From Oscillospiraceae bacterium (GTDB lineage: Bacteria > Bacillota > Clostridia > Oscillospirales > CAG-272): a stretch of 64,000 nt of DNA. The stretch lies in the NCBI GenBank assembly GCA_015063955.1, contig SVTD01000003.1:3952-67951 (forward strand), written 5' to 3'. Position numbers and translations under genes: made by a program. The notes under the pieces were generated by a model, which was not told where the DNA came from, searched no databases, and saw only the letters and a program-made list of their open reading frames with translations. Within the stretch, counting starts at the first letter, position 1. Each line of letters starts with the position of its first letter. Shown here piece after piece: positions 5,635-50,345 of the stretch.

Positions 5635-5672
5635 GCCGTTAGTCTTACGAATCTAAAGAATTGGTGTTAATT

Positions 5673-6527
5673 ATGAACTTTTGTCCGAATTGTAATACTC
5701 CTGCAGGCGAAAACCACACGTTCTGCGCATCCTGCGGAGCAAGCCTGATAAAAGAGACACAACAGCCGAAGGCTCCCCATTGCCCAAATTGCGGAGCTGA
5801 AGTTGGCGATAATCATTCCTTCTGTCCTTTTTGCGGTACTGAAGTGGCGAAGCCGCAACCCCGTCTGTGTCCAAACTGCGGCGCCGCGGCTGAGGGTAAT
5901 CACACCTTCTGCCCCTTCTGCGGCACGGGGCTCAACGCAGCCCCCAAAAGACCTGCCGGAGGAGAATCCATAACCTGTCCTAACTGTGACTCAATAGTAA
6001 GACCGTATAACGGTCTTTGCCCCTTCTGCGGAACAGAGCTTCTTTCTCCCGCATATAAAACGAATCCCACGCCCCGTCCCTCAGCTGCTGAAAAAAACAG
6101 ACATAAGCTCCATTGTCCTTCCTGCAAATCGAATAATCTTGACAATGCCACAGAATCAAACGTAAGCGCCGGAATGGGAATCACCAAAGGCAATTATACC
6201 GGAATGGTTTTTAGCAACGAGCATAAGCATTACTGGATCTGCCGAGACTGCGGAGAAAAATTCAGAAATATCCAGAGCCTTGAGGAAGAGATCAAAAGCG
6301 AGAGCTTTGTTCCCAATTGTTGCAAGGTTTGCTTCTTTTTTATGCTGTTTGCCGTTCTGTTTTTCGGATTTACGGCAATGGCTATGCAGATCGAGATCCT
6401 TCGGTACTGTACCGTGTTTGCACTGGTAGGCTGCGCCATCACACTCCTTTTGTGGGCGGTTTTTGCAAAACACGTGAATAAGCTCAAGGACGAGCTTGAT
6501 TACCTTAAAACAGAATGCTTTAATTAA
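5673..6527 (+). CDS. Multi zinc-ribbon membrane protein
   Basis: Four CPNC-x10-CxxCG repeats, a fifth CxxC/CxxC pair and two C-terminal hydrophobic helices. Confidence 0.75.
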   Translation: MNFCPNCNTPAGENHTFCASCGASLIKETQQPKAPHCPNCGAEVGDNHSFCPFCGTEVAKPQPRLCPNCGAAAEGNHTFCPFCGTGLNAAPKRPAGGESITCPNCDSIVRPYNGLCPFCGTELLSPAYKTNPTPRPSAAEKNRHKLHCPSCKSNNLDNATESNVSAGMGITKGNYTGMVFSNEHKHYWICRDCGEKFRNIQSLEEEIKSESFVPNCCKVCFFFMLFAVLFFGFTAMAMQIEILRYCTVFALVGCAITLLLWAVFAKHVNKLKDELDYLKTECFN

Positions 6528-46143: not shown

Positions 46144-46386
46144 TCAGATGTTTTTCATTTCCTCAAGGCAGGAGGTGCATATTTTCTTATCCTTGTACGT
46201 AACGATGCCGTCCGCCTCACCGCAGAAGATGCAGGAGGGTGCGTATTTCTGAAGGATGATCCTGTCCTTATCGGAAAACATTTCAACTCCGTCGCCGGAA
46301 TTGATATCAAGCATTCTTCTGATCTCAATGGGGAGAACGATTCTGCCAAGCTCGTCGATCTTTCTTACCATGCCAAGTGATTTCAT
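46144..46386 (-). CDS. abrB: AbrB-family transition-state regulator
   Basis: MKSLGMVRKIDELGRIVLPIEIRR...CIFCG...ICTSC. Confidence 0.93.
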   Translation of the reverse strand: MKSLGMVRKIDELGRIVLPIEIRRMLDINSGDGVEMFSDKDRIILQKYAPSCIFCGEADGIVTYKDKKICTSCLEEMKNI

Positions 46387-46475: not shown

Positions 46476-46600
46476 ATTGTAACTCAATTTACAGATTTTG
46501 TCAATAACTCGACAGCATTTTCTGAAATAAACCGTTTTCCACCGTTCGCCACTTTTCGACAAGCCCCTGTGTTGACTTCACTTTCATATTAGTATATAAT
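46476..46600. promoter_or_regulatory. Divergent sigma-A promoters (abrB and LRR operon) with tandem Spo0A boxes
   Basis: Minus TTGACA-17-TACAAT (46504-46476); plus TTGACT-17-TATAAT (46572-46600); minus TGTCGAA-aag-TGGCGAA at 46561-46545. Confidence 0.7.
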
Positions 46601-46629
46601 TATATCAATATTATATAATGGAGAAAACT

Positions 46630-47994
46630 ATGAGTTCTAAATCAAAAAATAACAAAAGCGCCGGCACTATAGGGTGCATCGTACTCATGCTTATTTCATT
46701 CGGCCCGGTTATTGTGCCTCTCTTTCTCTTATTTACCGAAGCGCCCCCCGCGGTAGTGGCGGTTTTATCAGCTATAGCATTCGTTCTGATACTTTCACAT
46801 CACAATAAATCATTTAAGAACGCCGGCACCGCGAAAGCAGCGCTTGATCCCAATGCCTCCGAAAAGGCTTTTGCACGCAGGATAGTCCTTTCAAGGCTGC
46901 GCGAAATGACGACGGATACCTACAGACCCGTTGCAAAAAAGCTTATCCGGGACAGATTTATCGTTTGCGGCGCTTATGCCTTGTTTATCATCCTGTTTCT
47001 TGGATTCGGCGGGCTTTACGTTTCCCGCTTATTCATAAATATTTGCATTATTCTTGCCGTTGTGACTGAGGCGATATTTCTCTCCCTCTCTACGGAGAAA
47101 TATATCGTACGGGCTATGAAAAAGAACCCTCAGAAAAAGATCACAGAGATCGTCGGTGAGGTGACCTTCAACGACGCTGAGACTCCGAAGCTCAAGGGAC
47201 GGACGGTTGCGGCCGTTCTCCTTATCCCCGTGGCACTCGGCGTTTCCCTTGCATTCAATTCAACTCCTTACATAACCACAGAGTCCTGCATTGGCGGAGT
47301 ATCCGTCGTTGAATACCGTCCTGCATTTTTCGCTATGGATACGATTTCCATCCCCGAAAAGATCGACGGAAATACCGTCGTCAGCATTGGGGAAAATGCA
47401 TTCTCCGGCAACTCCTACGTAAAGGAGATCCGTCTCCCGGATACGGTCAAGGATATAGGCTCCTATGCCTTCAAGGACTGCCGCGCCCTTACAAGGATCA
47501 CTCTTCCCAAAAGCCTTGAAGCCCTTGGCGGCGAAGCATTTATGGACTGCAAAAGCCTCAGCTTCATCTCGATTCCCGAGGGAGTGAAGGAGATACGAGG
47601 CAGCACCTTTGAGGGCTGCTCCGCGCTTTCAAGCATCAATCTTTGTGACAGCATTACCGACATTCACGCGAGAGCCTTCTTCGGCTGCTCCTCTCTCAGA
47701 TCCATAGATCTTCCCGAGGGCATCACAGAGATCCACGCCAATACCTTCGAGGAGTGCTCAGCTCTCCGCAGCGTGACTATTCCCGAGGGCGTTACGAGGA
47801 TCGCAGCCCACGCCTTTTACGGCTGCTCCTCTCTCAGCGAGGTCAACGTGCCCGATTCCGTCAAGGAGATCGGAAGCTCCGCATTCCGTCTTTGCACCTC
47901 ACTTGACGAAATAACTATCCCCAAAGACTGTATCGTTAACGAAAGAGCCTTCAAGGAAAGCCCCACAAACGTAACAAGGAAGATTCATGAATAA
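46630..47994 (+). CDS. Membrane protein with BspA-type (LRR_5) leucine-rich repeats
   Basis: About five TM helices, then repeats of IG..AF.GC.SL.SI.IPEGV; RBS GGAG before ATG 46630. Confidence 0.88.
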   Translation: MSSKSKNNKSAGTIGCIVLMLISFGPVIVPLFLLFTEAPPAVVAVLSAIAFVLILSHHNKSFKNAGTAKAALDPNASEKAFARRIVLSRLREMTTDTYRPVAKKLIRDRFIVCGAYALFIILFLGFGGLYVSRLFINICIILAVVTEAIFLSLSTEKYIVRAMKKNPQKKITEIVGEVTFNDAETPKLKGRTVAAVLLIPVALGVSLAFNSTPYITTESCIGGVSVVEYRPAFFAMDTISIPEKIDGNTVVSIGENAFSGNSYVKEIRLPDTVKDIGSYAFKDCRALTRITLPKSLEALGGEAFMDCKSLSFISIPEGVKEIRGSTFEGCSALSSINLCDSITDIHARAFFGCSSLRSIDLPEGITEIHANTFEECSALRSVTIPEGVTRIAAHAFYGCSSLSEVNVPDSVKEIGSSAFRLCTSLDEITIPKDCIVNERAFKESPTNVTRKIHE

Positions 47995-49741
47995 ATTTAT
48001 CCATCTTTTATACGTCCCCACGAAAAACTGCAATATGCAGTGCAGCTACTGCTATCTCGGAGACTCAACAAGGGACGGTGACTGCGACCGCAGTCCCCTT
48101 GAGACCCTTGACTACGCAGTTCGGAAATTCAAAGAATGTGAGATAATTCCCTTTAATATCTCCCTCCACGGCGGCGAAGTCACAACCCTTTCAAAAGAGG
48201 ATTTTGCCTCCCTTGTCCGTTACATAAGGGACTATTACGAAGAAAACCGCACACTTATTACGGAAAACGGCTTCAAGGTGGGAAATCCCCATATCAAAAC
48301 GAACCTTTTCGGCATCGACAGGCATCTTGACGCCATAAGAGAGTATAACGTCAGCATTAGCGGAAGCCTTGACCTGCCCCTCTCCCTTCACCGTGAATAC
48401 AGACTGACAAAGGGCGGCGGCGATACCCTTCCGAAGATCCTTGAAAATATCGCCCTCCTTGAAAGCCTGCCAAACAGGAAAAAGGTCTCTGCCACCATTT
48501 TCCGCGAGCATTTTCTCCGTATGGACGAGATGATCAGAGATATAAAATTTCTCCACGAAAGCACCTGCCTTGATATGAACGATTTCAACTTCATGATAGG
48601 CTTTGCATCATCCAATATCCACCCCTCCTGCCGCCCCCTCACTCCTCTCTCCGAGGATGAGCAGGTGGAGCTTTTCAGAAGGATGAACGAGGAGTTTGAA
48701 AACACAGACCTGAAAAAAGGACTTGACGGCGCCTGGTTTGCCGAATTTACTCAGGCTTACTGCACAAACTGCGATCTCTGCTCGGAGAAGTTCTTTCTCC
48801 TTGAGAGAAACGGAGACGTCTACTCCTGCGTCAGAGGTCAGGGAGACCGTGACTTCTATTACGGCAACGTATACGAGGACACCCCCGAGGAGATCATGAA
48901 CCGGGCAAGGCTCAAGATCTATAACGTTCACAATCTTACCCCCTTTCCCGAGGAATGCGCCGAATGCGGATATCTTCACCTTTGCAAAACGGGCTGTCCC
49001 TTCGTTAAAAAGGAATACGGCTCAGGCAAATCCTATACCTGCCGTCTGCAAAAGGAGATCTACAAGAAAAACGGCGAGGCCGAGGAGCGGGAGGCATACC
49101 CCTTCGAATATCTCAGACGCGTTCATCCGCAGCTTTGCAAGGATCATCTCCCAAAAGCAAATGCGCCTGAAAACTCTCTTGAGGATCTGATTTCAAGGGA
49201 TGAAAAGCTGCAGCGTGTCTACGATCCCGATGCATTCATCCTCGTATGCGACGGTAACGAGTACCGCCTTGAGTCTCAGCTGACAAAATCCCTGCGTGAT
49301 TTCATCTTTATCGGCAATCACTCAAAGATTACCCTTTATACGAGAAAGGACGTGATAGACGCCCTTTCCGATTACCCCGTAAACAACGCCCTTTATATGA
49401 TGCTTCTCAGCGGAGATACGGTGGTGTACGGTGACGAGGGACGTGAAAAGCAGGAGCATATCATGACTCATCTCATCTACAAAAGCACCCTTGCGCGCCG
49501 GGAAAGCGACAGAGAGGGATATTATAGGACAGATCTTACAAAGATACTCCGTCCCTATCTTCCCCATCTTTCAAGGGAGCGGGAAAACAATCTGTTTTTC
49601 ACCACCTCTGCCCTCAGAGACTACCATTATACAAAGCAGAAAAATAACGGCTACTATCATATAGCCGCAATGGATCTGCCATTTCAGAATATAGAGTTTT
49701 ACTACATCGATACGGAGGAATCAGGCCATGAGCTTCAATAA
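47987..49741 (+). CDS. Radical SAM/SPASM domain protein with a C-terminal extension
   Basis: CNMQCSYC, LHGGE, SPASM cysteines (C..C..C...GDVYSC; CAECGYLHLCKTGCP...C), then about 220 aa of unrecognised sequence. Confidence 0.9.
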   Translation: MNKFIHLLYVPTKNCNMQCSYCYLGDSTRDGDCDRSPLETLDYAVRKFKECEIIPFNISLHGGEVTTLSKEDFASLVRYIRDYYEENRTLITENGFKVGNPHIKTNLFGIDRHLDAIREYNVSISGSLDLPLSLHREYRLTKGGGDTLPKILENIALLESLPNRKKVSATIFREHFLRMDEMIRDIKFLHESTCLDMNDFNFMIGFASSNIHPSCRPLTPLSEDEQVELFRRMNEEFENTDLKKGLDGAWFAEFTQAYCTNCDLCSEKFFLLERNGDVYSCVRGQGDRDFYYGNVYEDTPEEIMNRARLKIYNVHNLTPFPEECAECGYLHLCKTGCPFVKKEYGSGKSYTCRLQKEIYKKNGEAEEREAYPFEYLRRVHPQLCKDHLPKANAPENSLEDLISRDEKLQRVYDPDAFILVCDGNEYRLESQLTKSLRDFIFIGNHSKITLYTRKDVIDALSDYPVNNALYMMLLSGDTVVYGDEGREKQEHIMTHLIYKSTLARRESDREGYYRTDLTKILRPYLPHLSRERENNLFFTTSALRDYHYTKQKNNGYYHIAAMDLPFQNIEFYYIDTEESGHELQ

Positions 49742-50084
49742 CCCCGAAACCTATAACGAGATCGTTGCATACAGAATCTGTCTTCAGCTGAAGGTGAATA
49801 TACCTAATCTGAACGATAGCCTCCTCACAGAGGTCTTTGACCATATAACCGTTCCCGGAAACACCGCTCACGTTGCAAACGGGATCCTTTCCCTCTGCAC
49901 AGGTCCTGACATTGTCAAGACCTTCAACGTTGAATCCTTCATTAATCCCGCAGTTACAGCTATAGGAATGTCTCTTTCAGGCATAAATATCGCAAGACAG
50001 AATAACGGCTACTCCGGCGGCGATTATTCCGGAGGCAGCTCAAACAACAATAATAACAACAATAACAACAATAACAACGCATAA
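49728..50084 (+). CDS. Small protein with Gly/Ser and poly-Asn C-terminal tail (candidate rSAM substrate)
   Basis: RBS GGAGG, overlaps the rSAM stop; ends YSGGDYSGGSS-N12-A. Confidence 0.8.
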   Translation: MSFNNPETYNEIVAYRICLQLKVNIPNLNDSLLTEVFDHITVPGNTAHVANGILSLCTGPDIVKTFNVESFINPAVTAIGMSLSGINIARQNNGYSGGDYSGGSSNNNNNNNNNNNNA

Positions 50085-50085
50085 T

Positions 50086-50207
50086 AAAAAAAGGCGGTAC
50101 GTCTTGAATCCTAAATAAAAGAAAAGATACTTGACTCTGCCATCAGCGGGAAGTGCAGTATGAAAGCAAAGCCCGCGGCATCGTGATCCCCTCCCGGCGG
50201 ATTCGGT
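50086..50207 (-). ncRNA. Candidate structured small RNA
   Basis: Own TTGCCA-17-TATAAT promoter (50241-50213), rod-like self-complementarity, ends at a T7 tract. Confidence 0.4.
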
Positions 50208-50240
50208 AACGGATTATAAAAAAGATTGCCCGATTTGGCA

Positions 50241-50276
50241 AAAAACGGCTGACGGAAACCGTCAGCCGTTTTTTTA
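50241..50276. terminator. Intrinsic terminator after spoVM
   Basis: AAAAACGGCTGACGG-aaa-CCGTCAGCCGTTTTT. Confidence 0.8.
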
Positions 50277-50345
50277 TTTAAGCTTAAATATCCTTGCAAG
50301 GATCGGTGCAAGAAATCTCGGAGAGCGTACAAGTTTTATTTTCAT
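50274..50345 (-). CDS. spoVM: Stage V sporulation protein M-like peptide (MKIKLVRSPRFLAPILARIFKLK), absent from the ORF track
   Basis: 23-aa amphipathic peptide with Pro9 and PRFL, like SpoVM; RBS GAAAGG and its own terminator. Confidence 0.8.
   Translation of the reverse strand: MKIKLVRSPRFLAPILARIFKLK

Follow-up and report, generated by a model that had tools for sequence, protein, structure and literature searches.

A radical SAM/SPASM enzyme family encoded beside proteins with C-terminal Ser-(Asn)n tails: a candidate protein modification system in Firmicutes, environmental bacteria and Campylobacter phages

Background

Enzymes that combine a radical S-adenosylmethionine (SAM) core with a SPASM domain have repeatedly been a source of new peptide chemistry, and the arrangement in which such a maturase is encoded beside its substrate is well known. 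Here we describe an operon of an Oscillospiraceae bacterium (GenBank assembly GCA_015063955.1, contig SVTD01000003.1, positions 3,952 to 67,951; this whole stretch of 64,000 nucleotides is called the window below), in which the genes for a leucine-rich repeat (LRR) membrane protein, a radical SAM/SPASM enzyme and a 118-residue protein with an asparagine run at its C-terminus follow one another. The enzyme is probably a maturase that has the C-terminal Ser-(Asn)n tail of the adjacent 118-residue protein as its substrate or as a recognition element. New in comparison with the described systems would be the enzyme family, which is large and unnamed and has an unusually simple substrate signature, and the type of substrate, a homopolymeric Asn tail on folded proteins.

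Several described enzymes invite comparison. anSME acts on a protein rather than on a short peptide and oxidises Ser or Cys. It shares with the enzyme of the window the radical SAM core and a SPASM domain with all auxiliary-cluster cysteines, and its oxidised Ser or Cys may be likened to the Ser that stands directly before the Asn run. The window enzyme differs in scoring 77.2 bits against the anSME cut-off of 349, in the absence of a sulfatase and of the C/S-x-P-x-R context, and in its C-terminal domain of 220 residues, which anSME does not have; nor are the substrates of anSME encoded next to it. QhpD is a radical SAM/SPASM enzyme that modifies a whole protein. TqqB forms a Thr-Gln ether and NxxcB a Cys-Asn thioether, whereas PoyD and YydG are epimerases, the former acting on many residues of one peptide, Asn included. 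The S/T-N-N of the tails described here, with amides after a hydroxyl residue, is similar to the T-Q-Q motif of TqqB, but no sequence evidence makes the window enzyme a member of the TqqB, NxxcB or epimerase families, Cys is rare in the tails, and the enzyme has no further invariant Cys of the kind that could serve as hydrogen donor.

The dynobactin/darobactin-type cyclophane maturases (DynA NF041298, DarE, XyeB, GrrM/OscB) are peptide maturases of the SPASM type whose precursor gene lies next to them, as is the case here. The dynobactin enzyme joins Trp to the beta-carbon of Asn (PMC10288494), and this link is a precedent for C-H activation at Asn. An aromatic residue within ten positions before the Asn run is common in the present family too; it is, however, not conserved, whereas the cyclophane maturases act on short peptides with defined aromatic motifs, and here we find a folded protein with a homopolymer tail, an extra enzyme domain and a DynA score of 78.8 bits against 450. 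An archaeal enzyme is reported to introduce a thioether into a whole protein (PMC13692751). As with QhpD, this resembles the present case in that the product is likely to be a modified protein and not a cleaved peptide; both these enzymes make Cys thioethers, whereas the target here would be a Ser-(Asn)n C-terminal tail. The literature search, made in open-access papers without their supplements, found no link between a radical SAM enzyme and an Asn run, and passages of PMC8743553 and PMC2853527 proved not relevant to the pair.

Results and discussion

An enzyme gene overlapped by a gene for an Asn-tailed protein

The three genes form one compact operon on the + strand (window 46572-50276). 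All three open reading frames (ORFs) that an earlier note, made from the sequence alone, had described as overlapping and served by a single promoter were found at their positions:

46630..47994 (alternative start 46618), + strand: gene for the LRR membrane protein (BspA-type), from the ORF, Pfam PF13306 and hydropathy
47987..49741, + strand: gene for the radical SAM/SPASM enzyme, 584 residues
47987..49066, + strand: radical SAM core (C15xxxC19xxC22) and SPASM region with eight conserved Cys, from Pfam, NCBIfam and the alignment
49067..49741, + strand: C-terminal domain of the enzyme, about 224 residues (361-584), from the alignment, predicted fold and profile search
49728..50084, + strand: gene for the Asn-tailed partner, 118 residues
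49728..50042, + strand: folded body of the partner (residues 1-92) and Ser/Gly/Tyr linker, from the predicted fold
50043..50084, + strand: run of 12 Asn with mixed AAC and AAT codons, terminal Ala and stop codon, preceded by Ser104-Ser105

The stop of the LRR gene and the start of the enzyme gene overlap by 8 nucleotides, and the enzyme stop overlaps the start of the small ORF by 14 nucleotides; the latter is preceded by its own GGAGGA ribosome-binding site. The start at 46630 is favoured for the LRR gene by a GGAG six bases 5' of its ATG.

The partner has the end ...NNGYSGGDYSGGSS-N12-A, in which YSGGDYSGGSS precedes the run, just as the earlier note had read it. Its body (residues 1-92) is predicted from an alignment of 71 homologs to consist of two helices and five strands, with pLDDT of about 95, and residues 96-118 are disordered in the model. 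The protein has no signal and is presumably cytoplasmic. No Pfam or NCBIfam family was found for it; Foldseek returned no match to the fold in PDB at E<=0.001, BFVD contained none at the same threshold, and the best match of the body in a VIA search had a Z of only 3.7. The protein collection contains 196 clusters of the partner family, unnamed except for two labelled "hypothetical protein" and one with an evidently wrong label. Two longer family matches, of 298 and 737 residues (the latter with FtsH/AAA/peptidase M41 domains), are read as gene-call fusions. The tail is far from a chance occurrence: no other run of at least five Asn exists in any of the six frames of the 2,070,159-base assembly.

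Conservation of the gene pair

A scan of contigs from one genome per species matched 279 stretches, of which 269 encode a relative of the enzyme, and the best 80 loci were analysed. An ORF of 115-145 residues with a C-terminal Asn run begins at the enzyme stop in 76 of the 80, with a start-to-stop offset of -4, -8 or -1 in 47 of these and with partner identities of 22-41%. Of the four remaining loci three are accounted for: a contig ends inside the run (L030), a frameshift lies in the Asn tract while the twin contig L064 is intact (L063), and a degenerate remnant stands downstream with an intact copy 2 kb upstream (L013). In the fourth (L049) the contig leaves no room for the small ORF. Among 47 loci of other radical SAM/SPASM genes, used as a control and covering 269 kb, a run of at least five Asn occurs in two, both of exactly five, against 78 of the 80 family loci. 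The pairing of the enzyme with an Asn-tailed protein is thus conserved and not due to chance, and the small Asn-rich ORF that the earlier note had expected to follow the enzyme in its homologs does so with near regularity.

What is constant in the tails is narrow. The run is 5-20 residues long, mostly 12-15, in the 72 complete ORFs, where it is followed by Arg (26), nothing (14), Gly (13), Ser (9), His (5), Ala (4) or Gln (1). Before the run, the 77 tails of the Firmicutes clade have Gly at -4 in 71, Gly at -5 in 47 and Ser at -2 in 73, and position -1 is Ser in 61, Gly in 10 and Thr in 4. Tyr or Trp within ten residues before the run is common but not fixed (58/77), and Cys is rare (7/77). 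The Tyr/Ser/Gly repeats, which had been suggested as a possible site of modification, are therefore not what is kept; conserved are Ser at -1 and -2, Gly at -4 in this clade, and the Asn run itself. AAT and AAC codons are mixed in 76 of 76 tracts, with AAC making up 411 of 965 codons (43%), as against 822 of 4125 (20%) in the enzyme genes. Codon mixture and AAC enrichment argue that the peptide is under selection, and they speak against an origin by simple slippage.

A prediction of the complex of enzyme and partner lends weak support to their association. Its median score was 0.35 (runs of 0.64, 0.27 and 0.35), the best of three controls reaching 0.00; the runs had at least 51% shared contacts and partner pLDDT of at least 73. 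In the calibration 116 of 157 solved complexes and 2 of 215 mismatched pairs attained the pass mark, and at scores of 0.60 or below lie the passes of 18 of the 157 solved complexes and of both mismatches; our own alignments and the ligands carried along in the prediction place these runs outside that calibration.

Divergent relatives and a phage tail fibre

Divergent members of the family, taken from a search of representative proteins, were used to fetch metagenome loci, and 40 of these were examined (L091-L129, L132). The enzyme ORF was not recovered in four of the 40; most loci are of the type seen in the window, and the tail is present wherever the contig permits. Nine loci are more distant, their enzymes being only 33-40% identical to P0260, the sequence that heads alignment A4; the contigs have 25-67% GC, in six cases 57-67%. 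In all nine, a protein of 129-173 residues ending in S-N13-28-G directly follows the enzyme, Ser occupying position -1 in 9/9. In eight of the nine the enzyme is preceded by a transmembrane protein of about 150 residues, which is not an LRR protein, and the Gly-Gly before the run is absent from all nine partners. Comparison of their bodies with that of the window partner by hhalign gave a probability of 84.7% (E 6.7e-6, 62 columns); they appear, at best, to be remote homologs, and the idea that partner bodies are unrelated between clades was rejected on this match.

A third group consists of six metagenome loci of 31-32% GC (L092, L114, L115, L118-L120), in which the tailed ORF is absent downstream of the enzyme. 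At least two ORFs of 84-127 residues lie upstream instead, each ending in a short run of N3-N7, for example PSNNNNNNGG, SHNNNNH, FSNNNNNN(N)LAGNV and HGNNNS. These ORFs look like alternative C-terminal cassettes. Proteins of about 1000 residues that start with MGKINFKDS... are encoded near these loci, and one, of 984 residues, ends in SPSNNNNNSGGY. No Pfam or PHROGs identity was found for the neighbours in these contigs, and the group had no relatives among viral contigs.

When the enzyme alignment of the Firmicutes clade was compared with 2.9 million viral contigs, one locus encoding a relative was found. A full-length homolog is encoded by Campylobacter phage CAM-P21; it is 35.9% identical to the window enzyme across 97% of the latter (E 1e-95) and lies among structural genes:

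L171 5235-8743: CAM-P21 tail-module stretch with the enzyme homolog

The order is baseplate, tail fibre (PF12571, E 4e-40), 211-residue protein, enzyme, DUF1353, 337-residue protein and tail sheath. The tail fibre, two genes before the enzyme, ends in ...YAPSGSTNNNNY, that is, in SGSTNNNNY. A prophage on a C. coli plasmid (L172 1807-5243) has the identical gene order and fibre ending. The fibre of phage PC10 (L185 450-1481) shares the first 152 residues at 93% identity and ends in ...SFMELR with no Asn run; its gene is followed by DUF4376, and PC10 was not among the phage records that matched either enzyme query. This comparison of presence and absence comes from closely related phage records and is treated as a lead. 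A Campylobacter phage appears, from gene content, to apply a protein modification to its tail fibre. The enzyme and a tailed protein are conserved together across three divergent clades and the phage, and their occurrence with a tail fibre suggests that they serve in recognising surfaces or in assembling the fibre.

The enzyme family and its C-terminal domain

The N-terminal part of the enzyme is a conventional radical SAM core (Pfam PF04055, 42 bits against a cut-off of 29.5, with C15, C19 and C22 present), and the SPASM assignment comes from PF13186 (22.8 against 21.5) and TIGR04085 (45.2 against 27). The cysteines of the SPASM region follow the pattern C-x5-C-x10-G-x4-C ... C-x2-C-x5-C-x3-C ... 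C; all eight are invariant, also in relatives of only about 33% identity, which bears out the full SPASM cysteine set seen earlier by eye. No invariant Cys beyond the 3 + 8 cluster ligands, such as might act as hydrogen donor, is found in the alignment of divergent members. The cluster motif stands nearly at the N-terminus, which leaves no N-terminal recognition domain, and neither Pfam nor NCBIfam finds a RiPP (peptide made on the ribosome and then modified post-translationally) recognition element of the PqqD-like kind in enzyme or partner.

In NCBIfam (June 2026), 42 maturase-type models match the enzyme, and among the 25 matches listed none comes close to its equivalog cut-off; the best is DynA NF041298 with 78.8 bits against 450, followed by anSME TIGR03942 with 77.2 against 349.45. 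The sole solved structure recognised by sequence is likewise anSME (PDB 4K37, E 2.1e-5, 26.7 bits, residues 13-357). PADLOC gave no system-model match for the three proteins, except for a generic pVip match to the radical SAM core at 26.6 bits. The enzyme therefore stands outside the characterised families represented by the listed models, as had been supposed, and its unnamed family is, judging by these profiles, apparently new.

The C-terminal extension of about 220 residues beyond SPASM, which the earlier note could not assign, has indeed no recognisable family or fold relative. Two motifs, YGDE.R.KQ.H and R.YHY.KQKNN.YYH..A.NLPFQN, are very strongly conserved, and the domain, with its many conserved Tyr, His, Asn, Gln, Lys and Arg residues, is no less invariant than the tail. 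AlphaFold2 models it as a beta-sandwich with helices (pLDDT 90.9, pTM 0.84). No family of Pfam, NCBIfam or PDB explains it, Foldseek found nothing in PDB at E<=0.001, and the best VIA match, a chain of the phage Chi tail tip (Z 6.7, rmsd 3.1, 110 aligned), is below the noise level of that tool; the VIA matches are generic Ig-like sandwiches. Structural neighbours in the Atlas are other radical SAM clusters only. A profile of the domain matched 113 of 1.84 billion representative proteins. All eight full-length matches inspected are proteins of 582-616 residues with the domain behind a radical SAM/SPASM core; most others are shorter than the enzyme and cover the domain partially, and one weak match is a giant LRR protein. 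The domain is therefore exclusive to this enzyme family. One sequence from the search of representative proteins, P0301 (477 residues), has LRR_5-like repeats followed by the middle of the enzyme (the SPASM region and some of the C-terminal domain); it looks like an LRR-enzyme chimera or the product of a deletion.

Proposed reaction

The tail is the single feature common to every partner, and this suggests that it is the part recognised and, most likely, modified; comparative evidence thus points to the tail as the putative site of catalysis. The invariance of the C-terminal domain and its conserved polar and aromatic residues make it the proposed grip on the Asn run. In the reaction that we propose, the beta-sandwich domain would hold the Ser-(Asn)n tail at the SAM site, the radical SAM cluster would cleave SAM, and the 5'-deoxyadenosyl radical would abstract a hydrogen at the Ser/Asn junction or along the run. 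Two auxiliary clusters, fully ligated by Cys, would accept electrons, so that the outcome would be an oxidative change, a cross-link or the dehydrogenation of Ser or Asn. With the eight auxiliary cysteines kept and no further invariant Cys, a two-electron oxidation fits better than epimerisation, which is less likely by analogy. Serial Asn cross-links, a Ser-Asn heterocycle or an aldehyde would be, for instance, candidate chemistries, and there is a fair chance that the chemistry itself is new.

The modified product would stay a protein, as the earlier note had supposed. This is suggested by the confidently folded body, by the lack of a protease or exporter (none is among the conserved neighbours, and none is present in the window) and by the tail-fibre case. 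In its most far-reaching form, the proposal is that of a new post-translational modification, in which a dedicated enzyme with a poly-Asn-binding domain rewrites the Ser-(Asn)n tails of folded proteins by unprecedented chemistry, in use by gut Firmicutes, by unrelated environmental bacteria and by Mu-like phages of Campylobacter; this we put forward tentatively, as a serious possibility rather than as an expectation. If true, a modified tail at the receptor-binding end of a fibre could be a device for adhesion or assembly, and radical enzymology would be joined to phage-host and gut-surface biology. The homopolymer tail makes the biochemistry approachable, the whole site being on one tryptic peptide.

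Several observations speak against tail modification by the adjacent enzyme or weaken the case for it. A single defined site is not obvious when the length of the run ranges from 4 to 28 and it may be followed by R, G, S, H, A, Q, Y or nothing. The upstream placement and short runs in the 31-32% GC clade indicate a looser link there. The complex prediction, which the earlier note had named as a check and whose median did exceed the controls, returned no interface or contacts. Full Cys ligation of the auxiliary clusters is read as oxidative from anSME, SuiB and the epimerases, that is, from general background. The phage comparison consists of very few independent records, and the surface LRR protein of the cassette, itself conserved, has no evident connection with a partner that lacks a signal. 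An RNA-library contig (352 nucleotides, 8 differences) spans only 46678-47029 of the operon.

Alternative explanations

A classical RiPP would have a leader of 92 residues, cut after Gly-Gly, with a small modified Ser-(Asn)n peptide exported. The glycines at -4 and -5 of the Firmicutes-clade tails do recall the end of a double-glycine leader, and long folded leaders are known in other RiPP classes. Of the usual RiPP traits, however, the adjacent co-occurring gene is present (76/80), while genes for leader removal and export are not: a C39 peptidase, an ABC exporter or any other protease is absent from the conserved neighbours and from the window. Gly-Gly is missing in the nine divergent partners, the phage tail sits on a structural fibre, and the partner body is conserved and confidently folded, which together make a cleaved and exported peptide quite improbable. 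Unlikely, too, is that the Asn-tailed protein is a partner, scaffold or regulator of an enzyme whose real target lies elsewhere, be it the LRR protein, a protein encoded at another locus or a small molecule. The modest complex scores would suit such a role, and anSME, the closest named relative by sequence, acts on unlinked proteins; but the tail alone is common to all partners (the fibre, at least, has a different body), only one clade has the LRR protein, no small-molecule biosynthesis genes are conserved nearby, Asn runs occur in no other protein of the genome, and a search of the window gave no sulfatase.

Still less can be said for a defence or phage-related module, with the LRR protein as sensor and the radical SAM enzyme as maker of an antiviral product. 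Its distribution is patchy (2 of 25 genomes of the genus), one homolog is in a phage, and the weak pVip match points the same way, but apart from this generic hit to the core none of the three proteins is covered by a PADLOC model, the alignment of the Firmicutes clade recovered only one locus from the 2.9 million viral contigs, the phage gene belongs to a tail-fibre module and not to a defence island, and the LRR domain is extracytoplasmic; we regard this reading as very improbable. That the small ORF is a chance open frame on a low-complexity repeat, encoding nothing, is hardly credible. Slippage can create such tracts, and public contigs break at this one; against this stand the ribosome-binding site of the ORF itself, its retention in 76 of 80 loci at 22-41% identity with a fold predicted at pLDDT of about 95, the mixed codons of all 76 tracts, and the 196 clusters of the family in the protein collection. 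Modification of the Ser-(Asn)n tail by the neighbouring enzyme thus remains the reading that we prefer.

The LRR protein and other genes near the cassette

The LRR protein of the window has about five N-terminal hydrophobic segments and a C-terminal BspA-type domain ending ...ERAFKESPT... (LRR_5, PF13306, E 1.7e-56, 190 bits against 27.7). Of the 77 Firmicutes-clade loci with 1.5 kb of room, 69 encode an LRR_5 protein directly upstream of the enzyme, L021 adding one by eye and seven with room having none; PF13306 was found in all seven sampled upstream proteins from other loci. The N-termini vary: they have 0-8 hydrophobic segments and in some cases a zinc ribbon, and a lipoprotein signal in L002 and in two or three further loci places the LRR domain outside the cytoplasm. 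The protein is possibly a surface partner. Divergent clades and the phage are wholly without it, so that it is an accessory of the Firmicutes clade and does not belong to the core, despite its presence in about 70 of 77 loci there.

In 37 of 68 loci with room (among L025-L090; for example, L083 7115-8131), the gene after that of the partner encodes a membrane protein of about 338 residues that has two zinc-ribbon pairs. DUF2207 is found ahead of the cassette in 16 loci and LemA in 15, and a gene for a Kv-type channel comes after it in a few; none of these is encoded in the window. A Pfam scan of 58 window ORFs found no sulfatase, peptidase or exporter by the cassette, in agreement with the earlier statement that no sulfatase is nearby; the search for sulfatases was confined to these ORFs of the window.

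Signals and flanking genes in the window

The operon is bounded by the following elements and genes:

46572..46600, + strand: sigma-70-type promoter TTGACT-17-TATAAT, 11 of 12 consensus matches, 5' of the operon
about 50244-50276: GC-rich hairpin between an A-run and a T-run, from reading of the sequence; absent from the scanner's list
46144-46386, - strand: AbrB/MazE/SpoVT-domain gene, 80 residues (PF04014, TIGR01439)
50277-50345, - strand: SpoVM-like ORF of 23 residues (MKIKLVRSPRFLAPILARIFKLK), likeness by eye

The hairpin is likely to serve as a terminator in both directions, for the operon and for the spoVM-like ORF that converges on it. spoIIE and the AbrB-domain gene lie upstream of the operon. 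The label abrB holds as far as the domain is concerned, but the protein, of 80 residues, is not a canonical AbrB: the N-terminal domain is followed by a zinc-ribbon-like CxxC...CxxC end with a weak DZR_2 match. As for spoVM, the likeness of the 23-residue ORF is visible by eye, but Pfam gives no match even at E<=1; the ORF is 91% conserved in one locus of the same genus (L174). An empty-site comparison covered 11 same-genus loci around the symporter gene, of which one has the spoVM-like ORF and none an AbrB-like or SpoIIE match by tblastn. Synteny around the symporter gene is lost, and a clean insertion site could therefore not be demonstrated.

Identical contigs from three DNA runs contain the stretch, and all end at 50036-50039, the start of the Asn tract. 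The tract (window 50036-50078) seems to be a hot spot of assembly breaks and errors, as is also seen in frameshifted L063 with its intact twin L064, and the small gene may for this reason often go uncalled.

Distribution

The family has 269 relatives among one-per-species genomes and more than 120 full-length protein clusters; one Atlas cluster holds 105 proteins, mostly of Campylobacterota. In the genus of the window, the enzyme occurs in two of 25 genomes. The sole other cassette of the genus (L002 1501-3237, genome G023) has an in-frame TAG in the enzyme gene, which could mark a pseudogene or a sequencing error; its LRR protein is of the lipoprotein type, and a Kv-type channel gene follows the partner gene. 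Elsewhere in the window, 5661-6524 (+ strand) encodes a 288-residue protein with three double-zinc-ribbon units (PF12773, E 1.1e-23), and zinc ribbons also open many of the cassette LRR proteins in other genomes.

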